Shown: positions 11,415 through 30,616 of the stretch, in pieces
Layout: each line of letters opens with the position of its first letter
How positions within the stretch are numbered: the first letter of the stretch is position 1
Source of the DNA: Ignavibacteria bacterium RIFOXYC2_FULL_35_21
GTDB lineage: Bacteria; Bacteroidota; Ignavibacteria; Kapaibacteriales; UBA2268
Assembly (NCBI GenBank): GCA_001804705.1
Contig: MHAY01000060.1
Coordinates: 52,055 to 116,054, forward strand
Length of the DNA: 64,000 nt
Direction: 5' to 3'
Translations under genes and position numbers: made by a program
The notes under the pieces: generated by a model
What the model was told of the DNA's origin: nothing
What the model saw: only the letters and a program-made list of their open reading frames with translations
Database searches by the model: none

Positions 11415-12116
11415 TTAGAAAGTATTATAAATCAAATATACTCCTCCAAGAATCACAAGAATTCCGCAAATTCGCTTGATATATTTTGTAGTCTTGGAAT
11501 TTTCTGTCCAATTTAAATATTGCTGTACTTTCTTTGTTAATGTACCTGCCAGAACAATGACGAAAGCATGTCCCAGTGAAAATGCAACAAGTAAGCTGAT
11601 TGCTAAAATAATATCGGTTGACGAAACCTGGAATACAACACCAAGAATAGGTGCCATAAAAGCAAAGGTACAAGGTCCAAGACCAATTCCGAAAATAAGT
11701 CCAAGAATAAGAGCGGCAATCAATCCCTTGAATCTGGTACCGCTCATTTTAGCTCCATCCCATGGTAATCTTATTACGTCAAGCAAATAAAGACCAACAA
11801 CAAAAAATACAACTGCAACAATATAATTTCCTATTGAGCCGACATCTCCCATCAATCTGCCGAGAGAAAGAGTAATAATACCAATTAATGCAATTGTAAT
11901 TAAAATACCGATTGCAAAAACAAGAGATAAATTGAAAGTTCTTTTTAAAGTGATATCCCCTTGAGAACTTAAAAAACCAATTATTAAAGGAATACTAGAT
12001 AAATGGCAGGGGCTTAAAATTATACTTAATATGCCCCAACCCAAAGCAGATAAGGATGCCAACCAAAAATTCTGGTATAACAAATTACTCAGTGTATCAA
12101 ATAAATTTTCTATCAT
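11415..12116 (-). CDS. ccdA: CcdA/DsbD-family transmembrane thiol-disulfide electron transporter
   Basis: Six-TM protein with the two conserved membrane-embedded Cys motifs (LSPCHLSSIP and LGPCTFAFMAP). Confidence 0.8.
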   Translation of the reverse strand: MIENLFDTLSNLLYQNFWLASLSALGWGILSIILSPCHLSSIPLIIGFLSSQGDITLKRTFNLSLVFAIGILITIALIGIITLSLGRLMGDVGSIGNYIVAVVFFVVGLYLLDVIRLPWDGAKMSGTRFKGLIAALILGLIFGIGLGPCTFAFMAPILGVVFQVSSTDIILAISLLVAFSLGHAFVIVLAGTLTKKVQQYLNWTENSKTTKYIKRICGILVILGGVYLIYNTF

Positions 12117-12125
12117 TTTTATTTT

Positions 12126-12692
12126 CTAACTATTAATTTTTAATCCCTTGGATTGAAGAAATTTATCAATATCTTCTTCCGGGTAGTATCCTTCATGTCT
12201 GTGTATTTCCTTTTTATTGGCATCAAGGAATATCTGGGTTGGAATTAGTCTAATTCCATATTCAATGCTTTTATCTTTATACTCATCTTTCCAAACGTCA
12301 TAAAAGATGACTTTAAGTTGTTCATCATACTTTTTCTCAAGGGATTTCATAATAGGCTGCATTTTTTTGCAAGGAATACAATTTACTGAACCTAATTCAA
12401 TAAAAGTAACAATTGGATACTTTGGCGCGTCATTTGTAGAAACCTGTTCGCTACTTTTCGAACTAGTTTTGTTTTTTGAATCGGTTGCATTATTTAAATT
12501 GATATTCTTCTCCCCTTTTGCAGAACTAGCGATTGTATTATTCTCAGTGTTAGAGTTTGTTTCAGTTTTGTTTAACTCGGTTACTTCTGCAGTCTTTGTC
12601 TGAGTCTGAGGTTGTTGCTCTGATTCTTTATTATTACAACCTATTACTATAAACGAAAGTGCTAATAGTATAATTATTAAATTTAGTTTCAT
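12126..12692 (-). CDS. Thioredoxin-fold lipoprotein (CIPC active site) with a long Ser/Thr/Asn/Gln-rich linker
   Basis: Lipobox LSFIVIGC. The C-terminal domain reads VTFIELGSVNCIPCKKM...LIPTQIF. Start moved to M26 (12692), abutting the upstream stop. Paralog of 26674..27075. Confidence 0.75.
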   Translation of the reverse strand: MKLNLIIILLALSFIVIGCNNKESEQQPQTQTKTAEVTELNKTETNSNTENNTIASSAKGEKNINLNNATDSKNKTSSKSSEQVSTNDAPKYPIVTFIELGSVNCIPCKKMQPIMKSLEKKYDEQLKVIFYDVWKDEYKDKSIEYGIRLIPTQIFLDANKKEIHRHEGYYPEEDIDKFLQSKGLKINS

Positions 12693-12693
12693 A

Positions 12694-12933
12694 CTATTTT
12701 GCCTCCCCGAGCCATTGAAGAATCTGATTATCTTTTGGAATTGAGCCATAACTAACCACTTTATCATTCACAACCAAACCTGGAGTCATCATAATTCCGA
12801 ATTTCATTATTTCCTGAAGGTCGGTTATTTTTTCAATTGTGGCATCAATCTTGTTGATATTAACAATCTCTCTGACTTTTTTTTCAAGATTAACACATTT
12901 AGCACACCCGGTTCCTAAAATTTTGATATTCAT
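12694..12933 (-). CDS. Small glutaredoxin-like protein (redox-active disulfide protein 2 / MTH895-TM0996 type)
   Basis: 79 aa with MNIKILGTGCAKC...MMTPGLVVNDKVV. This is the typical small Trx-fold protein found next to ArsP-type permeases. Confidence 0.75.
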   Translation of the reverse strand: MNIKILGTGCAKCVNLEKKVREIVNINKIDATIEKITDLQEIMKFGIMMTPGLVVNDKVVSYGSIPKDNQILQWLGEAK

Positions 12934-12934
12934 T

Positions 12935-13342
12935 TCAATCTCCTAATATTTTTTTTATTTCATTAGTTATATATTTTTTAAATTTTTTAAAATCATTCTC
13001 ATAATCCCAAATCTTATCGAGATTTTTCCATTGAACTTCTTTTCCATTTATTTTTTTGCTGATTATAAGTGTTTGAGTGTCAAATTTATATTGTTCTTGA
13101 TAATGTCCATTCTTCGGTTGAAGAAAATCAAGAGATTTGAGAGTTATTGTACTATCTTTTAACTCTTTTTCAAAATATAATTCAACCGAATTCTTAATGA
13201 AGTCTTCAATTGTAAGGCAAGCATGACACCTTATAGTTGCATGGAAATATAAAATATCTATCTGTACATTTTTGACCTGAGCTTGCATATTAATTAAGCT
13301 CATTATAAATACAATAGCTACAATAATGATTTGTCTTTTCAT
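12935..13342 (-). CDS. Small exported CxxC protein (resembles proteins annotated as ArsF family in ars clusters; from memory, unverified)
   Basis: Signal peptide, then IDILYFHATIRCHACLTIE. About 135 aa. Paralog of 14951..15364. Confidence 0.45.
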   Translation of the reverse strand: MKRQIIIVAIVFIMSLINMQAQVKNVQIDILYFHATIRCHACLTIEDFIKNSVELYFEKELKDSTITLKSLDFLQPKNGHYQEQYKFDTQTLIISKKINGKEVQWKNLDKIWDYENDFKKFKKYITNEIKKILGD

Positions 13343-13587
13343 TAGCTGTTCACTCCTTTACTTAAATAAACCTTCAGTTCCTCAACCGTTGGCACTTTAC
13401 CGGAGAACAAAACCTTGTCATTGACAACTAATGCTGGAGTTCTCATAACACCAAATTGTGCAATTGTGTTTATATTTGACATTTTAAAGATGTCTGCCTT
13501 AATATTCAATTCATGCACGGCAGAACGAACTCTTTTTTCGAGAGTCTCACAATTTATGCAACCAGGCCCTAAAACAAGAATGTCCAT
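13342..13587 (-). CDS. Small glutaredoxin-like protein (redox-active disulfide protein 2 type), second copy
   Basis: MDILVLGPGCINC...VMRTPALVVNDKVLF. Start moved to M13 (13587). The stop overlaps the next start by 1 nt. Confidence 0.75.
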   Translation of the reverse strand: MDILVLGPGCINCETLEKRVRSAVHELNIKADIFKMSNINTIAQFGVMRTPALVVNDKVLFSGKVPTVEELKVYLSKGVNS

Positions 13588-13597
13588 TTCTTCACCT

Positions 13598-14890
13598 TTA
13601 AATAAGACCAAAAATAAATCCAACTATTGTTGAAAAAAATACGACTAATGACACATATATTACCGTCTTCTTAGTGCCAATTACACTTTTAATAACAAGC
13701 ATACTTGGTAAAGATAATGCAGGTCCAGCTAATAGCAAAGCAAGTGCAGGCCCCTTTCCCATACCTGAACCCATCAATCCCTGTAAAATCGGAACTTCCG
13801 TTAAAGTAGCAAAATACATAAAAGCGGCAATAATACTTGAAATGAAGTTAGCAAACAACGAATTACCTCCAACTAAATCTGATATCCACACTGAAGGAAT
13901 AATTCCTTCATGCCCGGGTCTGCCGAGCATAAATCCGGCAAAAAGGACACCAATGAACAGAAGCGGCATGATTTGCTTAGCAAATGTCCACGTAGATTCG
14001 AACCATTTCTTCAATTCGTCATTGCCGGTTATAGTGATATATGTTAAACCTAATATTGCTACTCCAAATGGAATACTTGGATTATCAAATATAAATACGG
14101 AAACAGCAACAATTGCCGCAATTGCTACTAATTTAATGATATTGGCTTTATACCACAGCGCCAATACAATACCGAATATTAAAGCTGCAACCGAAGTTAT
14201 TATCCATTTTGAACTATATACCGCAAACCAAAAACCTTCAACCGTATCGGGTTTAGCCCAGTTCGAAAACACCAGAATAATTATCATCAAACCAAAGAAT
14301 ATTATTGTTTGCCATAATGGTCGTGGTGTTTCCGGTTCGGGCAGTTCGGCGGCGGCTTCAATTTTTTTTATTTCTTCCTTCCTAAAAATAAACGCCATAA
14401 TCAAACCGATTACTATAGCAAAAGAAACGGCTCCAACTGTTCTTGCAACTGCAATTTCAATCCCAAGCACTTTCCCCGATAAAATTATAGCTAAAACATT
14501 AATTGCCGGACCAGAGTATAAAAATGCTATTGCCGGTCCCAAACCAGCACCCATCATATATATTCCTGTAAAAATAGGCAATACAGTACAAGAACACACC
14601 GCAAGAATACTTCCGGAAACTGAGCCAACACCATAAGCCATTTTTTTATTAGCTTTAGGTCCCAAATATTTCATCACTGAATTTTGACTTACAAAGACGC
14701 CAATTGCTCCTGCGATGTAAAATGCAGGCAGTAAACATAGAATTACATGTTCTTGGGCATACCATTTCATCAACTCTAAGGCTTCAAATATTGCCCCATC
14801 AAATCTTTGATTACCTATAGGTAAATTATAAAATAATATAAATGCCACTGCTAAATATATAAAAATTTTTATTTCTTTTTTCCATTCCAT
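13598..14890 (-). CDS. Multi-pass permease of the ArsP / UPF0718 (COG0701-like) type
   Basis: 430 aa with about 10 TM helices and a conserved CxC motif in a TM helix (SILAVCSCTVLPIF). It is followed by a small redox-active disulfide protein, the classic pairing. Confidence 0.65.
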   Translation of the reverse strand: MEWKKEIKIFIYLAVAFILFYNLPIGNQRFDGAIFEALELMKWYAQEHVILCLLPAFYIAGAIGVFVSQNSVMKYLGPKANKKMAYGVGSVSGSILAVCSCTVLPIFTGIYMMGAGLGPAIAFLYSGPAINVLAIILSGKVLGIEIAVARTVGAVSFAIVIGLIMAFIFRKEEIKKIEAAAELPEPETPRPLWQTIIFFGLMIIILVFSNWAKPDTVEGFWFAVYSSKWIITSVAALIFGIVLALWYKANIIKLVAIAAIVAVSVFIFDNPSIPFGVAILGLTYITITGNDELKKWFESTWTFAKQIMPLLFIGVLFAGFMLGRPGHEGIIPSVWISDLVGGNSLFANFISSIIAAFMYFATLTEVPILQGLMGSGMGKGPALALLLAGPALSLPSMLVIKSVIGTKKTVIYVSLVVFFSTIVGFIFGLI

Positions 14891-14950
14891 TTAATAATCT
14901 CCAAAGGTATTTTTGCTTACTTTATTTTCAAATAGGGTTCTGTTTATTAC

Positions 14951-15364
14951 TTACTTAATTGCTTCAGCAATACTTTTCTTCATTTCCTCTTCAAATTTCA
15001 TTTTATTACTTGTTCTTGCATAGTCTTTAACAATTGCAGAAACATCCACCGATGATTCATCCTGTCCAATTTTTGTAACAATAATGACAGTTTGCGATTT
15101 TGCATTGTATTTTGAAACTAAATCTATATTAGCAGAATCTGCTAACCGGATAACTTTAAATTCAATATTCTCGTTAGCAAAGTATTTAATCAAGACAGAA
15201 TCAACGTCTGCCTGAAGGGCATTACAGGCTCTTGCTTTACAGCAAGCAAGATTTGCTTTGAAATATAAAACTTCAATATATTTTTTGTTTTCTTGTGCTA
15301 AAGAAGTTTCAAATACTGAAATAACAGCCAAGAAAAGCAATAAAACTAATTTCTGCAAATTCAA
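14951..15364 (-). CDS. Small exported Cys-motif protein (ArsF-family-like), second copy
   Basis: Signal peptide, then YIEVLYFKANLACCKARACNAL. Same length and pattern as 12935..13342. Confidence 0.45.
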   Translation of the reverse strand: MNLQKLVLLLFLAVISVFETSLAQENKKYIEVLYFKANLACCKARACNALQADVDSVLIKYFANENIEFKVIRLADSANIDLVSKYNAKSQTVIIVTKIGQDESSVDVSAIVKDYARTSNKMKFEEEMKKSIAEAIK

Positions 15365-16093
15365 TTAATTTTCTCCTAATCTATCACAAAATGCTTTATA
15401 TACATTCTTTGCTCTTGACCTTTCAATTGCTTGTGTTTTCAAGTAATCCAGATTATTAATAACCATATCTAGTTTTGAGTATGGAAAACCCAATACTGCT
15501 TCTCCTGTCTTTACATCTGTTGCATCCCTGCATCCATAGCAACCGAAACTCATATTAATCATACCGCTCAAATATGGAATTACACATGCATCAACGCATA
15601 CAGCCTGTAAAATACTGGTGCTAAATTCAAGCCTTCCGCCATCCTCATTCAAATAAGCAAGAGCAAGCCACATCAACTTTTCTACTTCATCCTCAACTAT
15701 TATCACATCAGGAGTTTTATCGAAATTTTTCAATGGCTTCACAAGAACTGAATTAAATTTATTCTGCTCAATCCTTGGCATTGTTTCCATTACTTTCTGT
15801 CCAACTTCAAGTTCACGAAATATTCCATATCCTTGTAATATACTGCCGTTTTTTAACTGCTCTGTGAGTGGTTTAAGACCTAAAGCTGCTGCTGCCGCCG
15901 GACAAGCAATGTTATCTTTATTGATCGTTATTGATTTGCCATGTCGTGCTTCCATTACTGCCTGGCAAAACCGGCAGTCAATCTTATTAGACTGTTCAGA
16001 TTGATAATTTTCTTTGTAAAATTTTACACCTACCGGCAAGCCCGTTAATCCAATAGTGTTCATAACTTCTTCTGATATTTCTTTTAAGTTCAT
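15365..16093 (-). CDS. DUF169-family protein
   Basis: PVGVKFYKE, CRFCQAV, ACPAAAAALGL and FGCYGCRDATD match my memory of the DUF169 (COG2043) pattern. Function unknown. Confidence 0.6.
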   Translation of the reverse strand: MNLKEISEEVMNTIGLTGLPVGVKFYKENYQSEQSNKIDCRFCQAVMEARHGKSITINKDNIACPAAAAALGLKPLTEQLKNGSILQGYGIFRELEVGQKVMETMPRIEQNKFNSVLVKPLKNFDKTPDVIIVEDEVEKLMWLALAYLNEDGGRLEFSTSILQAVCVDACVIPYLSGMINMSFGCYGCRDATDVKTGEAVLGFPYSKLDMVINNLDYLKTQAIERSRAKNVYKAFCDRLGEN

Positions 16094-16094
16094 A

Positions 16095-16463
16095 TTAATT
16101 CCTTTTTTTATCTTCTTTGTCGCTACATATTATGTCATATCTATCAACACTTTTAACTTTCGCCAAATCTTCCTTTATCTCCTTCTCATTAGAGAACCAT
16201 CCAGGTAAAGAATCAATTATATTTTTTACGATTGTGTTTTCAATATCTTGTGAAATCCTGTAATTTATCCATTTTCCTTCTTTCTCATCTTCAATAAATC
16301 CTTCTTTTCTAAGATATGATAAATGGTTTGAAACAGTTGCAGTGGTTAAACCCAAAATCGAAGTAATTTCACAGACGCATAGCGGCTTCTGCAAAAGCAT
16401 CATCAATATCCGTACTCTATTTGGCTCGGACATCACTTTAAATAATTCTATTTTATCTCTCAT
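16095..16463 (-). CDS. arsR: ArsR/SmtB family metalloregulator (As(III)-type CVC site), second copy
   Basis: RILMMLLQKPLCVCEITSILGLTTATVSNHLSYLRKEGFI contains a winged HTH with the CVC motif. Confidence 0.85.
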   Translation of the reverse strand: MRDKIELFKVMSEPNRVRILMMLLQKPLCVCEITSILGLTTATVSNHLSYLRKEGFIEDEKEGKWINYRISQDIENTIVKNIIDSLPGWFSNEKEIKEDLAKVKSVDRYDIICSDKEDKKRN

Positions 16464-16480
16464 CTGTTTTTCTCATTTAT

Positions 16481-16504
16481 TCATTTAGCTAATCATCTAA
16501 ACGA
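16481..16504. promoter_or_regulatory. Candidate ArsR operator (imperfect inverted repeat) upstream of the second arsR
   Basis: TCATTTAG-N8-CTAAACGA (7 of 8 positions complementary), 18-41 nt upstream of the arsR start at 16463. Confidence 0.3.
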
Positions 16505-16691
16505 TAATTATGAAAATATATTTTGAATACCAAATGATTTCTAAAAAATATTTGCTTCTAAACAAGGAAATTTGAGGTTGTGTCAAGATAAAAATAAATA
16601 AACACCCAAAGTGGTAAAATGAAAATCGGAAAATATTTTTTATAATACCTGATTCTATGTTTGAAAACACCTATTGACTCATCTCGCATAT

Positions 16692-17234
16692 TCATTTTAA
16701 TTTTTTTTCTAGAACATTTTGAATCTCTTCTTCTATTCCAGTTATATATCCCATCCTTTGCCAGGTAATTTCTCCTTTCTCATTGAAAAGAATATAATGA
16801 GGTTTATCATTAACATTCATAGCTCTTTTGAAATCGCTGTTCTCATCAAGATAAATATCAAACAGCCAACCTTTTCCCTTTGCCAAGGGAGCAACTTTTT
16901 TGCTGCTTCTCGAATCGTCAATACTTATTGCGATCACTTTAAGACTAAATTTATCCTGCAATTCGCTATAATTATCAGCTAATCCATCCAGGGCTTTCAA
17001 GCTTGGACTACAGCAGGATCCAAAAAAGACAATAAGTAATGGATTCTGATCACTTGCCAGATATTTGGTGTCAATACTTTCTCCTTTCAGGTTCTTTATT
17101 TTTACAGAAGGGATTGAATTAATTTGTGAAAAAACCTTATTAAAAAGAATTAACAACACTACAATTATTGAAAATGATATAGTACGAATTTTCTTTGACA
17201 ATTTTAACTTCATATTTTTCTTTATAGTATTCAA
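16692..17234 (-). CDS. TlpA/redoxin-like exported thioredoxin-fold protein with a non-canonical CCSPS site
   Basis: Signal/anchor helix. PLLIVFFGSCCSPSLKAL aligns with the WCGPC region of TlpA-type proteins, with Trp replaced by Cys and the resolving Cys replaced by Ser. Confidence 0.6.
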   Translation of the reverse strand: MNTIKKNMKLKLSKKIRTISFSIIVVLLILFNKVFSQINSIPSVKIKNLKGESIDTKYLASDQNPLLIVFFGSCCSPSLKALDGLADNYSELQDKFSLKVIAISIDDSRSSKKVAPLAKGKGWLFDIYLDENSDFKRAMNVNDKPHYILFNEKGEITWQRMGYITGIEEEIQNVLEKKLK

Positions 17235-17242
17235 TAAATATT

Positions 17243-17386
17243 TTATACAATACTACCTTTATCTATATGAATCCTTACATTACCATAATTAGAAGCAACA
17301 GGACTATGCGTTACCATAGCAATAGTTATTTGATTCTCGATATTAATCTGTTTCAAAACTTCTAATATTTCAATTGCTGATTTCAT
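17243..17386 (-). pseudogene. Remnant of an ABC ATPase 3' end (47 codons), a paralogous copy of the end of gene 21581..22249
   Basis: My translation is MKSAIEILEVLKQINIENQITIAMVTHSPVASNYGNVRIHIDKGSIV*. The intact gene ends ...SIEILEVLKRINIENQITIAMVTHSPTASKYGNIRIHIDKGSIVN*. By hand alignment, nt 17247-17374 match 21588-21715 at about 113/128 with no gaps. There is no Walker A/B part. Confidence 0.8.
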
Positions 17387-17413
17387 AATTTTTATTAAAT
17401 CCGATATAAAAGC

Positions 17414-18682
17414 CTAAAAATAAAATCTTGCCCAAATATCTAATTTTCCTTCGTATTGTTTGCTGCCATATTCGGTATTATCACTACCAACTAAAAAAGT
17501 GGGCCATAGTATAAATTCAAAGTTTGTGACTGGTTTATAACTTAAAGGCATGCCAATTATAAAGCTATTATCATTTAAATTATAAATTGTATATAAAGCA
17601 GGAGTGAAGTCAACCCAGTTAAACGGCTCCGGCAACGATATTTTTAGGTATAAGTAATCCTGCATTAGGTTTGATGAAGTAAAATAATTTTTATTCATAT
17701 TAAGTGCTTCTGATACGGAAATATTATTTCCCGATGAAATTGCATTCAAAAGAAATTTGTTGTATTCCTCATATTCTTTTAGCATTAATCCAGCATCATT
17801 ATGATAATATTCTAAAATAAATGTCATATTTAACTCATTCAACCATCTTATACCGATTAAATAAGAAGAACCACTGATTTTTTCAAGCATTAAGATACTA
17901 TCTGAAACAGTATACTTTGAATGATTATCGAACAAACTGTATTCACAATGAATTTCTAAACTTGGAAAAATGTTTCTTGAGAAATCTAATCCGATTTTCG
18001 ATGAATTTGCTTTGCTGTAATAACTCATTAAATCAATATCAGTATCCCATAATAGAAAATATAATTTTACTGCTAAATCAGTGTATTCAAGTTCGGATAT
18101 TTTATTATTAATCGTTTTTATCGAAGGTATAACAATTAAGTCAATAGCCATATTATTAATAAAGTCGCTTTGAAAGCTTTTGGAATATTGAAGATTAATA
18201 GAAAAAATACCGGACTTTGCGAGTTCAGGATTTTCCGGGTCTTTTACAGAATTGACATAACCGACAGGATTAAAGGCATATCCTTTGCCCCAATTAAGCA
18301 TTTTTTTGCCTATGATAGCATCCATATTTTGGAATAAGCTAATATTTCCATACATTTCAAATAAATTTATATCAAACTGATTGTCATTATAATATTCGGA
18401 ATGGGTTTTAATGTGAAAGCCTAAATCTTTTGTTTGATAGTCGCCATTAAGATATAATTCCATTCTGTATGATGATAAAACATCTGATAAATCCTGATTA
18501 TAAAACATTAAATTATATATAGGAGAACTTTTTCTGGTTTTATTTAATGAATATTTACTATCAAGATTCCCGCTTAATTTTAATGTTTCGACTTCACTTA
18601 ATACAAAGCTGCTATCATAGTCTTGCGCTGATAATATAGTAATCATTAATATGGAATATATAAAAATAAAAAAAGTCTTCAT
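17414..18682 (-). CDS. Predicted outer-membrane beta-barrel protein, family unknown
   Basis: Signal peptide, alternating amphipathic Tyr/Asn/Ser-rich strands, and a C-terminal ...IWARFYF aromatic terminus typical of OM barrels. Confidence 0.5.
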   Translation of the reverse strand: MKTFFIFIYSILMITILSAQDYDSSFVLSEVETLKLSGNLDSKYSLNKTRKSSPIYNLMFYNQDLSDVLSSYRMELYLNGDYQTKDLGFHIKTHSEYYNDNQFDINLFEMYGNISLFQNMDAIIGKKMLNWGKGYAFNPVGYVNSVKDPENPELAKSGIFSINLQYSKSFQSDFINNMAIDLIVIPSIKTINNKISELEYTDLAVKLYFLLWDTDIDLMSYYSKANSSKIGLDFSRNIFPSLEIHCEYSLFDNHSKYTVSDSILMLEKISGSSYLIGIRWLNELNMTFILEYYHNDAGLMLKEYEEYNKFLLNAISSGNNISVSEALNMNKNYFTSSNLMQDYLYLKISLPEPFNWVDFTPALYTIYNLNDNSFIIGMPLSYKPVTNFEFILWPTFLVGSDNTEYGSKQYEGKLDIWARFYF

Positions 18683-19416: not shown

Positions 19417-19434
19417 AATTATTATCTCAATTTA

Positions 19435-21399: not shown

Positions 21400-21500
21400 A
21401 AATATATCTCCTTGTAATTTATTTAAATATTATTATGGTTATTAGACAATGAAATATTCATAAGGTTTAATTTAATATTTGATTTCATATCTCACTTCTA

Positions 21501-21570
21501 TCACTTGCAAACATCCTGTGTACTTAAAGTTCCGGCTTCCAGATTTTTAAAATATTTCTTTTGGATTCAC
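21501..21570 (-). pseudogene. acr3: Remnant of an acr3 3' end (last 22 codons plus stop)
   Basis: Ungapped colinear match of 21501-21570 to 24302-24371, about 55/70 by hand count, with the stop codon at the same position. It reads IQKKYFKNLEAGTLSTQDVCK*, against [21 protein letters not shown] in the intact acr3. Confidence 0.7.
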
Positions 21571-21580
21571 TTAGCAGTAT

Positions 21581-22249: not shown

Positions 22250-22250
22250 T

Positions 22251-23468: not shown

Positions 23469-23500
23469 ATTTGAATGTCCTTGTTAAATATCGTAATAAA

Positions 23501-24241
23501 TTATTTGCAGACTTTACCACTACTGGGAGGACAACAACCGCTACTGACCTTTTTATTTGCTGCTTCAACTAAGCTTTTGGCTTCGGTGATCCCGTTGAAC
23601 ATAGATGAAATCTGACCTTGTGCATTGATAACATATGTTATAGGAAATGAGGCATTTTTATCAAATTTGAATTTATTGATAAATGTTTTTTCATTTTTAT
23701 CATCAATATCCAGATTAATAATTGTGGCTTTATCTTTCAAACTCTTACAGGCTGATTGGCAGGCATCTAATTGCTTTTTACTATTCGAGTCAAATTGTTT
23801 TGAAAAGATAACGAATACAGAATTACCTTCATAAATTGCCTTTAAAACATCTTCTTCTTTAGGCGAAGGAACCATATTAACAAGTTGTTCTGGCGTCAGA
23901 TTTTGGGTGGGAGCACCTCCTGCAACAAACCCGTTGGTTGCAATTACCAATATAAGTGGAGTTGGAGCTCCTGCTAAACGATAAGTTTGTACAAGTTTAT
24001 GATTAGCAATGCTTGTTCTATCTAATTCTAATACAGTAGATTTAGAAATAGACTTTTGAGCTTTTTCTGCCAGATTCATGGCTTCCTTAGTGTTGGGATT
24101 ACCTCTTTCAGTAACTACAAGGAATACGATTTTACCATTCTTGTTTGCATTCTCAATGTCTTGCTTTGTATCAGCCAAGGATACAAATAGGTTCGCAAAA
24201 AATAATGTTGCGATTAGAACGGAAATGCTTAAATTTTTCAT
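23501..24241 (-). CDS. Exported protein with two thioredoxin-like domains lacking CxxC and a C-terminal GCCPPSSGKVCK tail
   Basis: Signal peptide. Two Trx-fold-like halves (GKIVFLVVTE...TPLILVIATNG and NSVFVIFSK...FPITYVINAQG). The final 12 aa carry a vicinal Cys pair plus a third Cys. Confidence 0.5.
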   Translation of the reverse strand: MKNLSISVLIATLFFANLFVSLADTKQDIENANKNGKIVFLVVTERGNPNTKEAMNLAEKAQKSISKSTVLELDRTSIANHKLVQTYRLAGAPTPLILVIATNGFVAGGAPTQNLTPEQLVNMVPSPKEEDVLKAIYEGNSVFVIFSKQFDSNSKKQLDACQSACKSLKDKATIINLDIDDKNEKTFINKFKFDKNASFPITYVINAQGQISSMFNGITEAKSLVEAANKKVSSGCCPPSSGKVCK

Positions 24242-24301
24242 GTGATTCTCCTAAAAATTATTTTTAAATTCTTTTATATTATAATCATTTATTTCATTCA
24301 A

Positions 24302-25384
24302 TTAAATGCGAAAATCCTGAGCAATCATAGTATCGGCTTCCTGATTTTTAAAATATTTCTTTTGGAACCACAATGCAACATTGACTAATGCAATCAGAGC
24401 CGGTACCTCAACTAATGGTCCTATTACTGCCGCAAATGCTTCACCTGAATTTATTCCGAATACTGCAACTGCTACTGCAATAGCTAATTCAAAATTGTTG
24501 CTTGCAGCCGTGAATGATAATGTAGCAGTTTTGGAATAATCTGCTCCAACTTTTTTACCCATATAAAATGAGACAAAAAACATTATAACGAAGTAAAGTA
24601 AAAGTGGTATCGCTATTCTTATTACATCAAAAGGTATTCTGACAATAAATTCCCCTTTTAAAGAAAACATTACGAATATTGTAAATAGCAAAGCTATCAA
24701 TGTAATGGGACTTATTTTAGGAATAAACTTTTTATGATACCATTCTTTGTTTTTGAATTTAATTAAAGTAAATCTGGTAAGGATGCCTGCAATGAAAGGG
24801 ATACCCAGATAAATAAATACACTTTCTGCTATTTGACCTATTGTAATATCTACCTTGAATGATTGCAGTCCGAGCCATTTTGGCAAAACTGTAATAAAAA
24901 CATAAGCATAAACGGAAAAAAACAGTACCTGGAAAATTGAGTTGAAAGCAACCAAACCTGCGGCATATTCTGTATCACCTTTGGCAAGCTCGTTCCATAC
25001 AATTACCATAGCAATACATCTTGCGAGTCCAATCAATATCAAACCAACCATGTAATGCGGATAGTCCTGAAGAAACAGAATTGCAAGAAAGAACATTAGG
25101 ATTGGACCGACAATCCAGTTTTGTACGAGTGATAATCCGAGAATTTTGAAATTCTTAAACACATCGCCCAGTTCTTCATATCTGACTTTGGCAAGCGGGG
25201 GATACATCATTAAAATTAGTCCCACGGCGATTGGAATGTTTGTAGTTCCCGATTGAAATTGGTTCCAGAAACCAACTATACCCGGGAATAAATAACCTGA
25301 CAATACACCTATAGCCATTGCAATGAATATCCACAATGTCAGGTATCTATCGAGAAAGCTAAGTTTTTGTGATATATTTTCCAT
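24302..25384 (-). CDS. acr3: ACR3-family arsenite efflux permease
   Basis: [22 protein letters not shown], and GLARCIAMV (containing the conserved Cys). Start placed at M12 (25384), just after the upstream stop. Confidence 0.9.
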
Positions 25385-25394
25385 TTTAATACTA

Positions 25395-26642
25395 TTATTT
25401 GTTAAACAGTTTTCCACCCATTAAATAAAAATATGCAGTTGCCCAATTTGCCAATAAAGTTGCAACACCGAAAATCAGCATACCAACACTGAACATAGCC
25501 CATGCTGATAAAATATTTCCAATAATACAACCGGTTGCAATTCCTGCACCAACTCCTATTAGAAATCCACCTAATGCCGCAATCAATATTTGACTTGGTT
25601 CCTTTGGTAAAAGTTTCGTTTGACCGGACATTAACCCGGATATAAATGCTCCAATTATAGTTCCTATTGAAAGTAGAATTAGCCATACACTGAGTTTCTT
25701 CGGTTCATATTTTGGAACGGCGACAGAAGGAATTTGAGCTGACTTTGTCTGTATGTATGTTATTGTACTATTAATATTAGTCTGTGCTTTGGGTTGAGGC
25801 TTCTGATAAATGAATCTTACATTATTATCAACAATTGCCTGATAAATATGATTAACACCATGCGTTACACCAAGAGGATAATTCCTGCCAACAGGCAATG
25901 ATGAGAGCCAAGCCAACATAGCAATTACTCCGATTGCAATACCAGTCTGCCAGGGTTTCCAGGATTTTGTAAATATCTTGTTAAATTGAAATTTGTCCTT
26001 TATGGTATTTTTTGTTCTTGTTTTCTTTTTTGAATTAATATAAATCAAAACAATAGTCAGCAGAAAAAACATTAAAACCAGCAGCCAGTACGGTAAACCT
26101 AATAACGAGTGCAGGGTAATTGCATTATCATTTTCACCATTTATAACGAAGCTAAGAAGAAATTTGTTGAATCCCTCCAGGGGGCCAAAATCAGCAAAAG
26201 AAATCCCAATTGGTATTGTTAAAAGTGCGGCAATGGAGTTAATATTTCCTGTTGCTCCTTTATACATACAACCGCTAATGCAGCCACCTCCTAAGACAGT
26301 GCCAACACCAAAAATTAATCCGCCAACTAATGCACTGAGCCAGATTAATTTTTTTGGAGCTAATTGTATGACACCTAAACTCTCAAAAATTGCAAACAGA
26401 ATCATTGATGTAAGAATTGCTATCCAGAATCCAAATAGTTTCTTAGAATCCCGCATAATGATTACTTCGCTCATAGCAGATGAACCGCACAGGTCACCCT
26501 TTTGGAGAGCAAATCCAAATAAGAAGCCAACTCCAATAGATAGGATAACCCATAATTCAGTTGCAACAGCAAGAATAACAACAGCTATAAAAAACAATGC
26601 AGAAATTGTTAATAATAATTTTAGATTATTTAATTGTCTCAT
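25395..26642 (-). CDS. YeeE/YedE-family (sulfur-compound transporter-like) membrane protein, full two-half fusion
   Basis: 415 aa with about 9-10 TM helices. Cys-containing re-entrant motifs are [21 protein letters not shown] and ATGCIIGN. Confidence 0.7.
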
Positions 26643-26673
26643 AAAAATAATCCCTTTATTTTAAGTTTATATT

Positions 26674-27075
26674 TTATTTGCATATTAAACCTCTCGACTG
26701 CAATAAAATATGTATGCTGTCTTCAGAAAAAAATCCCTCATGTCTATAAAACTCAATATTGGCTGAATCAAGAAATACCTGGGTAGGCATTAACCTTATT
26801 TTATATTGTTCCGCTTCTTCTCTGTTTTTTATTACATCAATGAATTTCACAAGTATTTGGCTACCATATTTTTTTTGAATTGAATCCATTACAGGTCTCA
26901 TGTTTTGGCAAGGGATACAACTCACAGAACCAAGTTCAATAAATGTTACTTTCGTAATTGTATCTATTGGATTAATATTGTTATCACTAATATTGTCAGA
27001 GTTATTACAAGATGAAATAAGGAAACACAATATTAAAACCAATAATACTATAAATATTTTGCTCTTATTTTTCAT
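26674..27075 (-). CDS. Thioredoxin-fold lipoprotein (CIPC active site), paralog of 12126..12692
   Basis: Lipobox FLISSC, then VTFIELGSVSCIPCQNM...LMPTQVF. Confidence 0.75.
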   Translation of the reverse strand: MKNKSKIFIVLLVLILCFLISSCNNSDNISDNNINPIDTITKVTFIELGSVSCIPCQNMRPVMDSIQKKYGSQILVKFIDVIKNREEAEQYKIRLMPTQVFLDSANIEFYRHEGFFSEDSIHILLQSRGLICK

Positions 27076-27469
27076 TATAAATAAGGTTATTTAATTCCAC
27101 AGTTTCGATGTAATCAATTATTTCATCCACTTTATCTACTGTTACAGGAGTTTTCCCCTTTACTATTCCAAAATCGGTTGTATTAATGTGTTTAAAGGTT
27201 GTTATTCCTTTATCCTTTAGAATTTCTTCTGCACAATTGATAGGACATCCATCAAGGACTACAAATCTTGAGTACTCTTGTTTGGATTGTTCTGTAAATT
27301 TTTCGTCTATTGCAAATCTTGCAAGGCACAGCATTTTAGATTTACCTCTTTGCATTAGTTTACGGGCAACCAAATCTGAATATGCACCTGTGTTTGATGC
27401 CCCTGAACAAGCGACGATTCCAACTTTTCCATCTTCCATTTTTAATCTTTCTGTATCATTTATTATCAA
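27065..27469 (-). CDS. DGC-domain (putative zinc-binding) protein
   Basis: VACSGASNTGAYSDLVARKL...MLCLA...VVLDGCPINCAEEILKDKGI contains the eponymous D-G-C motif and conserved Cys. The start may be M11 (27439). Confidence 0.7.
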   Translation of the reverse strand: MIINDTERLKMEDGKVGIVACSGASNTGAYSDLVARKLMQRGKSKMLCLARFAIDEKFTEQSKQEYSRFVVLDGCPINCAEEILKDKGITTFKHINTTDFGIVKGKTPVTVDKVDEIIDYIETVELNNLIYNEK

Positions 27470-27512
27470 AAATCATATTCAGACTTATATAAACAAATGT
27501 TATAATCTATAA

Positions 27513-28451
27513 TTATGAATCTAAATTTATTTGCCATGTTAACATAATGCCAAAAGAATATGAGTTAGTCAATTGTTTGCCATTATAATATTTATAAAAA
27601 GGATAATCATAATTACAGGAAATATAAAAATTATCAATTTTATAACTAAGCTGTGGAGAGGCAACAAATACTAAACCACCCGAGTCTTCAATAATACTTC
27701 CGTTATATCTGTCTTTACCTCTATACTCATTTCTCAATTCTAAAATGCCGACAAGGTTATTGAAAATAGATTTTGATATATAGAACGAAGAGAAAATTGA
27801 ATAACCGTATAAATAATCGTGTTTGTTAATGGCATTGATTTCAGCCCTGTTTATCAGGAACAAATGCAAACCTTCGTTCTTAAATCCTTTGTGTAAAAAA
27901 GAGTGGAATAAAATCCCATAAGCACCGGTTGAAGGTAAAATATTCTGTGGTACGTTAGCTTCACTAAAGTTAACAGGCACTCTGGCGCCAATACCTGCCG
28001 TATATTCAAGCTCTTTTACCCTGCTGTTATACAGATTGTATTTAACAGATGTATTGAGATGTGAAAACCCCGAACTTTCTAATTTATAATAATAATAATC
28101 CTGCATTTTTTGGAGGAAATAACCCGACTCTAATTCCAAAGTTAAATCTTCTGTTAAGCCATAGCCGGTATTGAATCCGATATAATTAAATTTATATTCT
28201 TTTACTAATCCCGGTTCGGTTATGATGTCACCTGAATAGTATTTATTGCCATAACCATTCATAAAAAATACTGATGTCCGAAGATTGTTTTCTTTCAGAA
28301 CTCCCAGATTTGCCGAACCACCTAATGGTGTCAGACCACCCACTGCAGCACCTCCCATACATCCACACTGTGAATATAGGCTGTAACCGCATAAAAATAT
28401 AATTGTAATAAAAACACTAATTTTCATCATTATACTCTTCAATAATTTCAA
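27513..28451 (-). CDS. Predicted outer-membrane beta-barrel protein with an N-terminal QCGCMGG motif
   Basis: Signal peptide (..GYSLYS), then CGC directly after the predicted cleavage site. The rest has Tyr/Gly/Asn-rich alternating strands. Family unknown. The start may be M8/M9. Confidence 0.45.
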   Translation of the reverse strand: MKLLKSIMMKISVFITIIFLCGYSLYSQCGCMGGAAVGGLTPLGGSANLGVLKENNLRTSVFFMNGYGNKYYSGDIITEPGLVKEYKFNYIGFNTGYGLTEDLTLELESGYFLQKMQDYYYYKLESSGFSHLNTSVKYNLYNSRVKELEYTAGIGARVPVNFSEANVPQNILPSTGAYGILFHSFLHKGFKNEGLHLFLINRAEINAINKHDYLYGYSIFSSFYISKSIFNNLVGILELRNEYRGKDRYNGSIIEDSGGLVFVASPQLSYKIDNFYISCNYDYPFYKYYNGKQLTNSYSFGIMLTWQINLDS

Positions 28452-28920
28452 TCATATAATCTAGCCATTCATAATCAGGATTTACAATAGTCCCAACGAT
28501 TTTGTCCCGGTGCAATATAAATAAGCATGGAGTAGTAGGAATTTCGAATCTTTTATAGTATCCGCTCGGTTCTTGCATATTATGGTCAATTCCATATAAA
28601 GCAGTTTTATTGCTATCAATCTGTGCCGATTCAAAAATATTAAATATTATTGGCAAGTTTTCTTTGCAATCATCGCAAAAAGAAGTTGCAAATACAACGA
28701 AAGTATATTCGCCATCTTTTATATGTTCTTTTAATTTTAGTATTTTTTTATCGGATGAATTATAAAAATTAACATTAATATCCCATCCACTCTTTGTTCT
28801 CCATTCCATCCAAGAGGTTTTACCTAAAATTATTGGTTCTTCAATTTTTTGTGTTTTCTGTAAATTTGAACAAGATATACAAATAATGAAAATGATTAAT
28901 ATTAAAATAGTTCTCTTCAT
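28417..28920 (-). CDS. TlpA-like thioredoxin-fold lipoprotein (CDDC active site)
   Basis: Lipobox IICISC, then FVVFATSFCDDCKENLP. Start moved to M10 (28920), adjacent to the arsM stop. Confidence 0.7.
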   Translation of the reverse strand: MKRTILILIIFIICISCSNLQKTQKIEEPIILGKTSWMEWRTKSGWDINVNFYNSSDKKILKLKEHIKDGEYTFVVFATSFCDDCKENLPIIFNIFESAQIDSNKTALYGIDHNMQEPSGYYKRFEIPTTPCLFILHRDKIVGTIVNPDYEWLDYMIEIIEEYNDEN

Positions 28921-28921
28921 T

Positions 28922-29737
28922 TTAATTAATATTTTTTTCTGCAACAACTGTTATGCTGACAATGGGATTTAGATTCTTCCTGAACTCATCAATTTCGTTC
29001 AAATCCAGATAATTCATCAATACGCTCGATGGAATTTTAATATTTTTTTCTTTAACAATCTGAATATTTGAGAAGCCTGATGATTTTATAATATCCATAT
29101 ATTCATTTTTTTGCATTGCTCCTGCTACACATCCTGCATACATTTCTGCGGCTGACTGTAATTTCTCAGGTAGAACGGCATTCAGTACAATATCAGAGAT
29201 GCAAAACCTTCCGCCACTTTTGAGTACTCTGAATATTTCCGAAAAAGCCTTTTCCTTGTTCGGAACAAGATTAAGAACACAGTTGCTGATTATTAAATCT
29301 ATTGTATTGTTATCAACCGGTAAATTTTCTATTTCTCCAAGCCTGAACTCGACATTATCATAATTTAGTTTTTTGCAATTTTCGCGAGCTTTGTCAAGCA
29401 TATCCTGAGTCATATCAACTCCTATTACTCTGCCAGTTTCCCCAACATATCTTCTTGCTATGAATACATCGTTTCCTGCGCCGGAACCTAAATCGAGAAC
29501 TGTTTCACCATTTTGAATTTTAGCAAACTCTGTTGGCAAACCGCATCCCAAGCCTAAATCAGCTTCGTTAAAATATCCATCAATTCCTTTATAATCGTCA
29601 CTCATAACCGTATAATCTATAGTATAGGGACCACATCCGCAGCAACATCCTGACTCTGAATTTTGCTTATCAGCTTCTCTTGCAATTTGTCCGTATTTTT
29701 CTTTTACAATTTCCTTTATTTCATCATCTGTTCTCAT
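28922..29737 (-). CDS. arsM: Arsenite S-adenosylmethionine methyltransferase
   Basis: N-terminal VKEKYGQIA, a Cys cluster SGCCCGCG, the SAM motif VLDLGSGAGNDVF, and conserved downstream Cys (SNCVLNL, YAGCVAGA). Confidence 0.9.
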   Translation of the reverse strand: MRTDDEIKEIVKEKYGQIAREADKQNSESGCCCGCGPYTIDYTVMSDDYKGIDGYFNEADLGLGCGLPTEFAKIQNGETVLDLGSGAGNDVFIARRYVGETGRVIGVDMTQDMLDKARENCKKLNYDNVEFRLGEIENLPVDNNTIDLIISNCVLNLVPNKEKAFSEIFRVLKSGGRFCISDIVLNAVLPEKLQSAAEMYAGCVAGAMQKNEYMDIIKSSGFSNIQIVKEKNIKIPSSVLMNYLDLNEIDEFRKNLNPIVSITVVAEKNIN

Positions 29738-30159
29738 TTGCCACCTATTATATAATGTTTATAAAAATTATTAAATTCTTTCATAATTAAATCTCTAACT
29801 TCCCTATACTTATTCAGAGTATCTTCTTCATTTCCTTTAAATGAATAGGGGTCTTCAAATCCTATGTGCAATCTTTGTTTAACATTTCCTGTGAATATAG
29901 GGCATGTCTCTTTAGCATTATCACATACTGTAATTACATAATCAAAATTTTCATTAACATATTGTTCAACTGATTCAGGATATTGTTTACTTATATCAAT
30001 TCCAATTTCATTCATAACTTGGACAGCTTTTGAGTTTATTCTTGATGCAGGTTCTGTTCCTGCAGAGAAAACATCAAGAGTGTTATCGATTGATTTCAGA
30101 AATCCTTCTGCCATTTGACTGCGGCAAGAGTTGCCTGTACATAAAATTAGTATCTTCAT
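29734..30159 (-). CDS. arsC: Arsenate reductase, LMW-PTPase / thioredoxin-coupled type
   Basis: P-loop LCTGNSCRSQMAEG plus the Cys pair in VCDNAKETCP. Confidence 0.9.
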   Translation of the reverse strand: MKILILCTGNSCRSQMAEGFLKSIDNTLDVFSAGTEPASRINSKAVQVMNEIGIDISKQYPESVEQYVNENFDYVITVCDNAKETCPIFTGNVKQRLHIGFEDPYSFKGNEEDTLNKYREVRDLIMKEFNNFYKHYIIGGK

Positions 30160-30194
30160 ATCATATTATATTAATTAAGTAAAATTGTTATTTA

Positions 30195-30223
30195 GATTCT
30201 GAACCAAGTTCAGAATGACAATC
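30195..30223. repeat. Short palindromic repeat, family B copy (GATTCTGAAC-caa-GTTCAGAATGACAATC)
   Basis: A 10-bp stem hairpin in the 77-nt arsR-arsC spacer. Related copies are at 40779-40804 (inverted) and 41023-41052. Confidence 0.6.
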
Positions 30224-30236
30224 AGTTTTGATTTAT

Positions 30237-30581
30237 TTAAATATTACAAATCTTGTTTCTATCTACAATTTCGAGTTTCCGTTTATCGGCTTTTATTCTT
30301 GCTTCATCATTAAACCATTCAGGCAGTAGCTTCATTAGTTTCCTGACCTGGAGATTTTCAGCTTTGTCATTTAGTTTGTAATCAACCCACTTGCCGTTCT
30401 TTTCATCGAGTATAAATCCGGCTTCCCGTAATAGGGAAAGGTGCTTCGATACAGTTGAATTTGCAAGGTTCAGAACTGCCCTTATTTCGCAAACACACAT
30501 TGGGCTGTCTTCGAGCATCTTAAGAATGCGAAGCCTGTTTGAATCCGATAAAGCTTTAAATATTTTAACATAATTTCTCAT
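30237..30581 (-). CDS. arsR: ArsR/SmtB family metalloregulator (CVC As(III) site), first copy
   Basis: RILKMLEDSPMCVCEIRAVLNLANSTVSKHLSLLREAGFI. Confidence 0.9.
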   Translation of the reverse strand: MRNYVKIFKALSDSNRLRILKMLEDSPMCVCEIRAVLNLANSTVSKHLSLLREAGFILDEKNGKWVDYKLNDKAENLQVRKLMKLLPEWFNDEARIKADKRKLEIVDRNKICNI

Positions 30582-30596
30582 ATTTTCACTTTCTCA

Positions 30597-30616
30597 TTTC
30601 GTTATTTGACGAAATA
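30597..30616. promoter_or_regulatory. Candidate ArsR operator: perfect 7-bp inverted repeat
   Basis: ATTTCGT-tatttg-ACGAAAT, 16-35 nt upstream of the arsR start codon (30581). Confidence 0.4.

Follow-up and report, generated by a model that had tools for sequence, protein, structure and literature searches.

Descriptions of arsenic resistance usually place it in the cytoplasm, where arsenic is reduced, methylated and pumped out, and ArsD is known as a metallochaperone handing As(III) to the ATPase ArsA. The ars operon of Bacteroides vulgatus ATCC 8482 is reportedly arsenic-inducible and is said to include thioredoxin-like and cytochrome-c-biogenesis-like genes. Here we analysed an arsenic-resistance island located in 64,000 nucleotides of DNA from Ignavibacteria bacterium RIFOXYC2_FULL_35_21 (contig MHAY01000060.1, positions 52,055 to 116,054 of the forward strand; this whole stretch is called the window and all coordinates refer to it). 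According to the map of open reading frames (ORFs), their translations and Pfam and NCBIfam scans, the island consists of 26 co-directional genes on the minus strand spanning 30581 to 11415. It shares with the canonical ars operon (arsR-arsC-acr3 with or without arsM) the CVC-type ArsR, a probable thioredoxin-type ArsC, ACR3, ArsM and an operator-like palindrome upstream of the first arsR gene (arsR1), but here these genes alternate with others for exported thiol proteins and for two ABC transporters. With the B. vulgatus operon the island has in common that thioredoxin and CcdA-type genes stand in an ars operon of an FCB-group anaerobe. That operon is, however, said to contain ArsD and ArsA together with ACR3 and to lack MacB-type pumps, LolA-like proteins, barrels, YeeE, DGC and DUF169 proteins.

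Two other described systems resemble the 3′ part of the island, the ArsEFG set of Shewanella putrefaciens (Chen, Zhang and Rosen 2019, Environ Sci Technol 53:6182, PMID 31059239) and the permease ArsP (Chen et al. 2015, Mol Microbiol 98:625), both as cited in PMC9144182. The segment 11415-14890 shares with them two ArsE-family thioredoxins, one ArsF protein scoring above its cutoff, an ArsG-related DsbD_TM protein and an ArsP_1 permease. It differs from ArsEFG in that the CcdA-type protein falls short of the ArsG model and the second ArsF-like protein of its own cutoff, and in having an extra thioredoxin lipoprotein, a DUF169 protein and its own ArsR. The sequence-only reading of this DNA knew of no characterised system with such a composition. 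This is only partly true because ArsEFG and ArsP have been published: the statement fails for the 3′ third of the locus, with its ArsE, ArsF and ArsG families and ArsP.

On balance, we favour the view that the locus is an accreted arsenic-resistance island, built of six modules which are separately present in other genomes, and that it works by the mechanism proposed below. In the order of transcription, the modules are M1 (arsR-arsC-arsM), M2 (an exported thioredoxin-like protein and a probable barrel of 304 aa), M3 (a DGC protein, a thioredoxin lipoprotein, YeeE and ACR3), M4 (an exported Cys-tailed protein, permease A and ATPase A; 21581-24241), M5 (ATPase B, permease B, a LolA-like protein and a barrel; 17414-21399) and M6 (arsR, DUF169, ArsF-like, ArsP, ArsE, ArsF, ArsE, thioredoxin lipoprotein and CcdA/ArsG-like), which together with a preceding redoxin gene occupies 11415-17213. 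The same run of genes had been taken for one super-operon forming one system, and this claim was not supported: the second ArsR gene (arsR2) lies behind a 228-nt spacer, two gene relics are embedded in the array and every module is found alone elsewhere, which together argue for an accreted mosaic. There are two ArsR-headed units, and from the sequence we consider the island to be at least two, probably three, transcription units.

Both relics were found in a repeat search as direct repeats of resident genes. The first is a 47-codon ORF on the minus strand (17243-17386), in which a stretch of 128 nt (17247-17374) repeats the end of the ATPase A gene (3′ end, 21588-21715) with 88% identity, and because it is such a copy we regard this ORF as a relic and not as a gene. 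The second (21496-21581, minus strand) lies within a 181-nt spacer and corresponds to the 3′ end of the ACR3 gene, with 76-79% nucleotide identity to 24297-24382 (E 8e-15); its frame translates as QKKYFKNLEAGTLSTQDVCK followed by a stop, comparable to the C-terminus of the resident ACR3. An Elusimicrobia-like donor (locus L007) was also considered for the ACR3 relic and dropped, as the resident ACR3 is the closest sequence with 79% identity. The two relics bracket exactly the four M5 genes (17414-21399). Judging from this arrangement, M5 may have replaced the interior of a tandem duplicate of the segment from the ACR3 3′ end to ATPase A, or it may have recombined in. In both cases the present gene array would be secondary, and arsR2 behind its 228-nt spacer points in the same direction.

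A Kapabacteria island (L087) contains M1, M2, M4 and M6 together with ACR3, and has neither M5 nor YeeE nor DUF169. Its genes stand in a different order: ArsR, redoxin, a relative of the 304-aa protein, further genes, ArsP, ArsE, ArsF, ArsE, thioredoxin, CcdA, ArsR, ArsC, ArsM, the M4 trio and ACR3. Between the thioredoxin lipoprotein and CcdA genes of this island there is a DUF559/MTES_1575 endonuclease-like gene (L087:6849-7217), another sign of ongoing rearrangement. The comparison set as a whole comprised 127 loci anchored on M4 or M5. The sequence-only reading had asked whether the extra genes recur beside ars genes, and in other phyla this holds for at least three blocks: the thioredoxin-lipoprotein/CcdA/ArsE/ArsP block, the Cys-tailed thioredoxin protein with its MacB-type pump and, in part, the LolA-like cassette. 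For YeeE and DUF169 it was not seen in any of the 127 loci.

M4 is apparently a unit undescribed in the searchable literature, consistently linked to ars genes and the most novel element of the locus; a literature search for FtsX or MacB-type pumps linked to ars operons found no paper. Its first gene (23501-24241) encodes an exported protein of 246 aa with tandem thioredoxin folds and a disordered C-terminal GCCPPSSGKVC tail, recognised from an AlphaFold2 (AF2) model, Foldseek and a weak Thioredoxin_8 match. The AF2 model (pLDDT 86.8) displays two tandem thioredoxin folds without an active-site CxxC, the tail having a pLDDT below 50, and its Foldseek neighbours are PDI bb'a', QSOX and the PDO of P. 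furiosus (PfPDO), with E of about 4e-6. The CC-x7-C tail is kept across 22 aligned homologues, in which C236 is nearly invariant and C245 invariant. An exhaustive profile search recovered 664 representative clusters of this family, 480 of them at E <= 1e-10, and multi-Cys Gly/Pro-rich tails end at least 95 of the 126 full-length cluster representatives. The second gene (22251-23468) encodes the MacB-type permease A (FtsX plus MacB_PCD; PF02687 74 bits, PF12704 39 bits) with the motif IEIMGCCNAISDGLL. Permease A has exactly four Cys, all located between the first and second transmembrane segments, in or beside the predicted MacB periplasmic core domain; C144, C240 and C241 are present in 27/27 homologues and C173 in 26/27, while permease B of M5 has none of this set. 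The third gene (21581-22249) encodes the ABC ATPase A (PF00005 121 bits).

We counted the context of M4 in 47 metagenome loci. The permease gene directly follows that of the Cys-tailed protein in 31/33 loci, the remaining two cases being second copies of the protein placed after a trio, and ATPase A is present in 15 of the 16 loci with sufficient downstream sequence. An ArsR gene lies within 400 nt upstream in 17/42 loci. Flanks of 3 kb or more are available for 23 loci, of which 20 contain at least one ars gene and 13 contain ACR3, ArsC or ArsM. Two loci are minimal: L088 has ArsR and the M4 trio amid unrelated genes, and L089 has ArsR, ACR3 and the trio. Four loci (L105, L123, L124 and L129) have two copies of the Cys-tailed protein gene, arranged as a tandem or on both sides of the pump genes.

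In outline, M4 resembles the ArsD-ArsA pair, as a thioredoxin-fold protein with vicinal Cys is encoded beside an ATP-driven transporter. The M4 protein, however, is exported and has two thioredoxin folds, and its partner is a MacB-type permease with an ABC ATPase, not ArsA with ArsB or ACR3. We rejected the Cys-tailed protein as an ArsD homologue: hhalign of its alignment (A2) against ArsD, for which a verified ArsD sequence was used, gave a probability of 17% and aligned only the Cys tail, a stretch of 12 columns (VSSGCCPPSSGKVC against ArsD APSGCC--GGNTSC, or SSGCCPPSSGKVC against PSGCC--GGNTSC). We tentatively propose, as an idea with perhaps one chance in a few of being right, that M4 could be a periplasmic counterpart of ArsD-ArsA. 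The exported chaperone tail would take As(III) or Sb(III) and pass it to the permease Cys (GCC and two more) for ATP-driven expulsion from the periplasm, with the thiols kept reduced by a relay from ArsE over CcdA to exported thioredoxins. As the module comprises three genes only and is found in minimal ArsR operons, it is directly testable in ars-deleted E. coli.

The genes of the putative relay are found in M6 and directly before it. The redoxin gene (16692-17213) encodes an exported ResA/TlpA-like protein with a CCSPS motif (PF00578, PF13905, PF08534), and an orthologue with 56% identity follows ArsR in the Kapabacteria island. ArsR2 (16095-16463; LCVCE; PF01022 61 bits, NF033788 84.8 against a cutoff of 55) is followed by a Cys-rich cytoplasmic DUF169 protein (15365-16093; PF02596 187 bits) and by an exported ArsF-like protein with a CC..C motif and a signal-peptide-like N-terminus (14951-15364), whose NF040494 score of 42.8 bits is below the cutoff of 60. 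The ArsP_1-family permease of 430 aa (13598-14890) scored 229.9 bits with PF03773 (cutoff 32.3). Next come a small cytoplasmic thioredoxin of the ArsE family with a CINC motif (13342-13611; TIGR00412 95.1 bits, cutoff 62; PF13192), an exported ArsF-family protein with a CHAC motif and a signal-peptide-like N-terminus (12935-13342; NF040494 92.5 bits, cutoff 60) and a second small ArsE-family thioredoxin with a CAKC motif (12694-12933; TIGR00412 101.4 bits, cutoff 62). The module ends with a thioredoxin lipoprotein (12126-12692; PF13098, PF00085), whose CIPC motif is accompanied by a VIGC lipobox read from the sequence, and with a CcdA/DsbD_TM-family membrane protein (11415-12116; PF02683 42.4 bits, cutoff 27.1) having LSPCH and LGPCTF motifs. 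ArsG is the best-named relative of this last protein, but with 50.5 bits against the NF040495 cutoff of 200 we do not consider it an ArsG equivalog. Eight comparison loci carry relatives of the CcdA-type protein; all have ArsP, ACR3 or ArsR, seven have ArsE and five the thioredoxin lipoprotein.

Like the pathways which lead from thioredoxin over DsbD or CcdA to CcmG/ResA, TlpA or DsbC/G, the island has a DsbD_TM protein of CcdA size with two P-C motifs, small cytoplasmic thioredoxins and exported CxxC proteins, one of them ResA-like. It differs from them in standing behind ArsR repressors and in having no cytochrome c maturation genes, and its clients are apparently ars-linked Cys proteins. 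We read the ArsE/CcdA/ArsF set, from sequence features, as a putative relay which starts at a cytoplasmic thioredoxin, crosses the membrane through a conduit and ends at a CxxC protein in the periplasm, a reading which departs from the published names. As the ArsF-family proteins here have a signal-peptide-like N-terminus and a single CxxC or CC motif, and as the family named after ArsG is DsbD_TM-like, ArsEFG as published likewise looks by its architecture like such a relay, from thioredoxin over CcdA to the periplasm, and this may prompt a re-examination of its mechanism.

M5 consists of the ABC ATPase B (20686-21399; PF00005 118 bits), the MacB-type permease B (19435-20685; PF12704 and PF02687), an exported LolA-like protein similar to TP_0789 (18679-19416; PF17131 130 bits; E 1e-22 to PDB 3buu, a member of the LolA superfamily) and an outer-membrane beta-barrel of 422 aa with about 18 strands (17414-18682; AF2 pLDDT 80.5). 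The barrel protein itself matched no family in the Pfam and NCBIfam scans, and Foldseek compared its model best with AlgE, chitoporin and Occ channels (E 2e-11 to 1e-9, TM-score 0.5-0.58). Its homologues number more than 1355, have a length of about 424 aa and are spread over many phyla, among them Elusimicrobia, Edwardsbacteria, Ignavibacteria, Bacteroidota, Fibrobacterota and Bdellovibrionota. The best-conserved motif of the barrel family, NWGKGYAFNPVGYVNPVKDPENPEL (residues 130-154), coincides with a long loop, the only such loop modelled by AF2 with low confidence (pLDDT below 50), which may be a plug or constriction loop. Searches of PDB sequences with both barrel profiles, of M5 and M2, gave nothing significant, nothing useful was found in the searchable literature on TP0789, and no relevant paper appeared there on ars or arsenite with LolA-like proteins, CcdA or DUF169. 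As in type VII ABC systems (MacAB-TolC, LolCDE-LolA), both permeases of the island are of the FtsX plus MacB_PCD type with separate ATPases, and M5 adds a LolA-fold protein and a barrel. The differences are that the modelled M5 barrel is AlgE/Occ-like, that the Lol cutoffs are not reached and that the invariant GCC motif is unique to permease A. None of the 26 ORFs matched the HlyD or OEP families, searched as signs of a MacA/HlyD adaptor or a TolC-type duct.

We surveyed M5 with one genome per species, which gave 80 loci. The LolA-like gene is present in 77 of them, the permease gene in 72 and that of the ATPase in 68. The four-gene core is kept in 65-77 of the 80, and the flanking genes are variable. 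In 12 of the 80 species, from at least six phyla and in at least seven arrangements, M5 lies beside ars-type genes (ArsR, ACR3-family, ArsP, ArsE, CcdA or thioredoxin lipoprotein). After clustering of the neighbours, ACR3, ArsR and ArsP were among the most recurrent families, with only the TonB-dependent receptor being commoner; an exported NifX-like protein, PadR, Fur, DUF302, split ArsP_1 halves and a MinD-4Fe4S ATPase also recur. M5 is thus a widespread uncharacterised envelope cassette of metal(loid) contexts, which has been repeatedly recruited to ars islands and is not arsenic-specific.

Several variants of the cassette were noted in the survey. An exported NifX-like protein of about 150 aa (Nitro_FeMo-Co, PF02579) is encoded between the permease and LolA-like genes in several genomes of Calditrichota, KSB1 and Bacteroidales (L072, L073, L075, L078, L082, L084 and L085). 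In L091, a NifX-like gene (6769-7128) also precedes a thioredoxin-like/barrel pair of the M2 type, and the two occurrences hint that metal-sulfur species are trafficked by both barrel systems. In L011 (6253-6645), L012, L014 and L041, the loci closest to the M5 of the window, there is a PadR-family regulator with an N-terminal C-x-C-H directly upstream of the ATPase B homologues, which may be a dedicated M5 regulator and is not found in the window; an OsmC-like protein also precedes the cassette in L011 and L012. Two copies of M5 in different contexts occur in two metagenome-assembled genomes (MAGs), JBFXJL01 (L018 and L024) and JAGVPT01 (L028 and L039). Of the JAGVPT01 copies, one is linked to ars genes and one adjoins a TonB-dependent receptor. 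Such pairs of cassettes in differing contexts suggest paralogues specialised by context.

The two genes of M2 encode an exported thioredoxin-like protein with a CDDC motif (28417-28920), which has weak Thioredoxin_9 and Thioredoxin_2 matches and a signal-peptide-like N-terminus, and a probable outer-membrane barrel of 304 aa (27513-28427), whose mature N-terminus is an invariant Q-C-x-C. The sequence-only reading had predicted two outer-membrane barrels in the island. For the M5 barrel this agrees with the AF2 model, whereas for the M2 protein, which has no Pfam match itself, the indication is weak, with 3/19 relatives matching PF13557 Phenol_MetA_deg (best E 1.6e-5) and one matching OMP_b-brl. 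The family of the 304-aa protein comprises 33 clusters, and its Cys are well conserved (C21 in 32/32 members, C23 in 31/32). The pair, with a thioredoxin-like protein of about 167 aa, is kept in L090 and L091 at 38-40% identity, and L092 has the barrel alone. Closer relatives adjoin ACR3 or lie in ars islands (L087, L093, L135, L106 and L115).

M1 and M3 contain the more familiar genes. ArsR1 (30237-30581) belongs to the ArsR/SmtB repressors and has the metalloid site CVC (MCVCE; PF01022 60 bits, NF033788 87.8 against a cutoff of 55). A perfect palindrome, ATTTCGT-N6-ACGAAAT (30596-30615), lies 15 nt upstream of its start codon and is, by its sequence and position, a candidate ArsR operator. 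It has one exact match in the window; other matches need three mismatches and are not more frequent than expected by chance, and no further copies were found inside the locus. ArsC (29734-30159; PF01451 79.5 bits) is probably of the thioredoxin-coupled low-molecular-weight-phosphatase type with a CX5R P-loop and two distal Cys, its best NCBIfam match being TIGR02691 with 127.9 bits against a cutoff of 174.3. It is followed by ArsM, an arsenite S-adenosylmethionine methyltransferase (28922-29737; NF008823 352.1 bits, cutoff 263). M3 begins with a cytoplasmic Cys-containing DGC-domain protein (27065-27439; PF08859 88 bits) and a thioredoxin lipoprotein (26674-27075; PF00085 39 bits), in which a CIPC motif and a LISSC lipobox were read from the sequence. 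The YeeE/YedE-family (Sulf_transp) membrane protein (25395-26642; PF04143 200 bits) scored below the TsuA equivalog cutoffs (NF052577 167 bits, cutoff 400; NF041049 128 bits, cutoff 645), and the arsenite efflux permease ACR3 (24302-25384) reached 459.7 bits with TIGR00832 (cutoff 282.8). DGC relatives are present in six comparison loci, four of which have ars genes. A tblastn search against PLSDB plasmids gave one uninformative match for DUF169 and none for DGC.

Most of the structural description given by the sequence-only reading was confirmed. All family-supported ORFs between 11415 and 30581 are on the minus strand, and the public gene calls reproduced the overlaps of 4 nt at 29734-29737 and 18679-18682 and of 1 nt at 13342. 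The junctions at 20685/20686 and 15364/15365 are both 0 nt in the junction table, and the junctions across the island are mostly 0-30 nt. Spacers longer than 150 nt occur at two places only, 21400-21580 (181 nt) and 16464-16691 (228 nt), and the stretch 17214-17413 would have to be added if it did not contain the 47-codon ORF. Profile scans agreed with the reported gene content (two CVC ArsR, ArsC, ArsM, ACR3, an ArsP-like permease, CcdA, YeeE, DGC, DUF169, a LolA-like protein, two MacB-type pumps and nine small thioredoxin-fold, CxxC or CC proteins). Canonical ars genes are indeed the minority with 5 or 6 of the 26, and Pfam and NCBIfam scans found no ArsA, ArsD or ArsB among the island ORFs, and no Mer, Cop, Czc or CadA-type genes within the locus. 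Signal-peptide-like N-termini were recognised on 10 island proteins by a heuristic based on hydrophobicity and a lipobox check. The idea of an envelope system is supported insofar as the accessory genes encode mostly exported Cys-motif proteins plus a CcdA-type protein, and it is overstated insofar as they probably do not form one machine.

A mis-assembled join of loci was considered and rejected, because the identical gene order is found in at least three independent assemblies (ENA, JGI) of Rifle-type groundwater samples and the GC content across the region is even (29-35%). The exact island proteins are present on 22 contigs, and the NCBI record of Ignavibacteria bacterium GWB2_35_12 labels most of the accessory genes 'hypothetical protein'. 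The first 2000 nucleotides of the window (1-2000) have a GC content of 23%, compared with 30-38% in the rest. The minus-strand run extends beyond the island, through QueE (30685-31359) on one side and a type-II P-type ATPase (8405-11278) on the other, and strandedness alone therefore cannot delimit the locus. The P-type ATPase is a protein of 957 aa, Ca/Mg-like and not of the heavy-metal P1B type; its gene lies 136 nt downstream of CcdA, a position kept in the other assemblies of this organism. On the plus strand, divergent from QueE and arsR1, 31490-34264 encodes a 924-aa protein with a C-terminal sorting domain of the type IX secretion system and a BNR repeat, which is consistent with a diderm host of the FCB group.

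How else could the island be explained? It might be a single co-evolved and co-transcribed 19-kb super-operon, encoding one envelope-spanning arsenical machine which needs reducing power supplied by CcdA. The 26 co-directional genes with their many junctions or overlaps of 0-4 nt, the lack of convincing intrinsic terminators in the spacers and the repetition of the gene order in several assemblies would fit this, but the internal ArsR2 behind its spacer, the LolA-like cassette bracketed by two relics, the occurrence of the modules alone or in other combinations and orders, and a strand run which takes in the unrelated QueE and P-type ATPase genes make it quite improbable. Even less credible, to the point that we give it hardly any weight, is a chance location of ordinary housekeeping genes for Dsb/Ccm redox and Lol trafficking beside ars genes. 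The labels do point this way, namely DsbD_TM ('cytochrome c biogenesis') and LolA_like, and lolCE and LolD are the best NCBIfam names. Every Lol equivalog score, however, is far below its cutoff (lolCE 107.5 bits against 362.45; LolD 216.7 and 210 against 307.75), the locus has no Ccm or Ccs genes, M5 is patchy in its distribution, variable in its contexts and twice present in single MAGs, and the modules are placed behind ArsR repressors. We therefore rejected such a housekeeping identity, which the sequence-only reading had itself raised.

The remaining alternatives are also unlikely, though less so. The accessory modules could belong to a general envelope stress kit for soft metal(loid)s and reactive sulfur (Sb, Hg, Cd, Cu(I), thiometalates, thiosulfate or polysulfide, Se/Te), merely aggregating with ars genes, an explanation which is plausible for M2, M3 and M5 and weak for M4. 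YeeE belongs to a thiosulfate-transporter family, there are weak best matches to models of the Tso selenoprotein system (TsoB, TsoR and TsoX), and multi-Cys tails bind many soft metals. Moreover, M5 elsewhere neighbours the TonB-dependent receptor, Fur, PadR, DUF302, NifX-like and MinD-4Fe4S proteins, and the M2 pair adjoins rubrerythrin or a NifX-like protein without ars genes. Against this stand the M4 regulators and neighbours, which are ArsR, ACR3, ArsC and ArsM in 20/23 informative loci, the two minimal ArsR(-ACR3)-M4 operons, the ArsP, ACR3 or ArsR genes in all eight loci bearing CcdA and thioredoxin, and a locus in which no Mer, Cop, Czc or CadA-type genes lie; we regard the kit as the least unlikely of the alternatives, and still as improbable. 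Slightly below it we place a literal ArsEFG/ArsP organoarsenical module in the 3′ unit, where ArsE and ArsF would reduce nitro-aromatics (roxarsone, nitarsone), the ArsG relative would export amino-aromatics and ArsP methylarsenite. The ArsE and ArsF scores above their NCBIfam cutoffs, ArsG as the best-named relative and the ArsEFG and ArsP papers, as cited in PMC9144182, favour such a module. The CcdA-like protein, however, reaches only a quarter of the ArsG cutoff while it scores above that of DsbD_TM and retains its two P-C motifs, the signal-peptide-like N-termini and single CxxC of the ArsF-type proteins fit periplasmic thiol-disulfide partners better than cytoplasmic nitroreductase subunits, and an aquifer is unlikely to hold synthetic aromatic arsenicals.

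Several findings weigh against the accreted island and its proposed mechanism. As M4 or M5 served as anchors in choosing the comparison loci, the figures on co-occurrence are biased and do not amount to a genome-wide statistic, and no YeeE or DUF169 relatives were present in any of the 127 loci. M5 has no conserved Cys, and in 68 of the 80 species its contexts are of the non-ars type, including the TonB-dependent receptor, Fur, PadR and NifX-like proteins. The M2 pair has no ars genes nearby in L090 and L091; since only its closer relatives sit with ars genes, the arsenic link of M2 is lineage-limited. NCBIfam names ArsG an efflux permease and ArsE and ArsF nitroreductase subunits, and not members of an electron relay. 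Scans of 11300-31200 for sigma-70 promoters and intrinsic terminators gave counts no different from those in shuffled sequences and are therefore uninformative on transcription units, the promoter scan being one which does not cover FCB-group promoters. Finally, neutral As(OH)3 may exit the periplasm unaided through porins, and the need for a periplasmic pump is therefore unproven.

In the accreted island as we favour it, we infer the substrates, the electron path and the localisation of the proteins as follows. As(III) would release both CVC-type ArsR repressors from at least two promoters, and arsenate would be reduced by ArsC and arsenite methylated by ArsM in the cytoplasm. ACR3 and ArsP would then move As(III) and methyl-As(III) to the periplasm. 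The cytoplasmic ArsE thioredoxins would deliver electrons through the CcdA-type protein to the exported CxxC proteins (ArsF, the thioredoxin lipoproteins and the redoxin), which would keep the envelope thiols reduced and free of arsenic. Periplasmic As(III) would be captured by the Cys tail of M4, handed to the Cys of permease A and expelled by ATP-driven mechanotransmission, with M5 and the barrels possibly supplying the outer-membrane route.

For the reading of metagenomic data, the locus illustrates that a long 'super-operon' of co-directional genes in a MAG can be a mosaic made by recombination, as seen from the relics at 17243-17386 and 21496-21581. If the proposal for M4 is true, it would be the first mechanism of arsenic resistance to act in the periplasm and at the outer membrane, and it would add a new substrate class to type VII ABC mechanotransmission. 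Exported thiol proteins, putatively fed by CcdA, recur with ars genes, and at least one ArsR-linked MacB-type system, M4, has conserved Cys in a predicted periplasmic position. Together with some 60 related loci, which come from uncultured anaerobes of the FCB group, the Elusimicrobia and other lineages, the island thus suggests that arsenic resistance has a second layer, located in the envelope.

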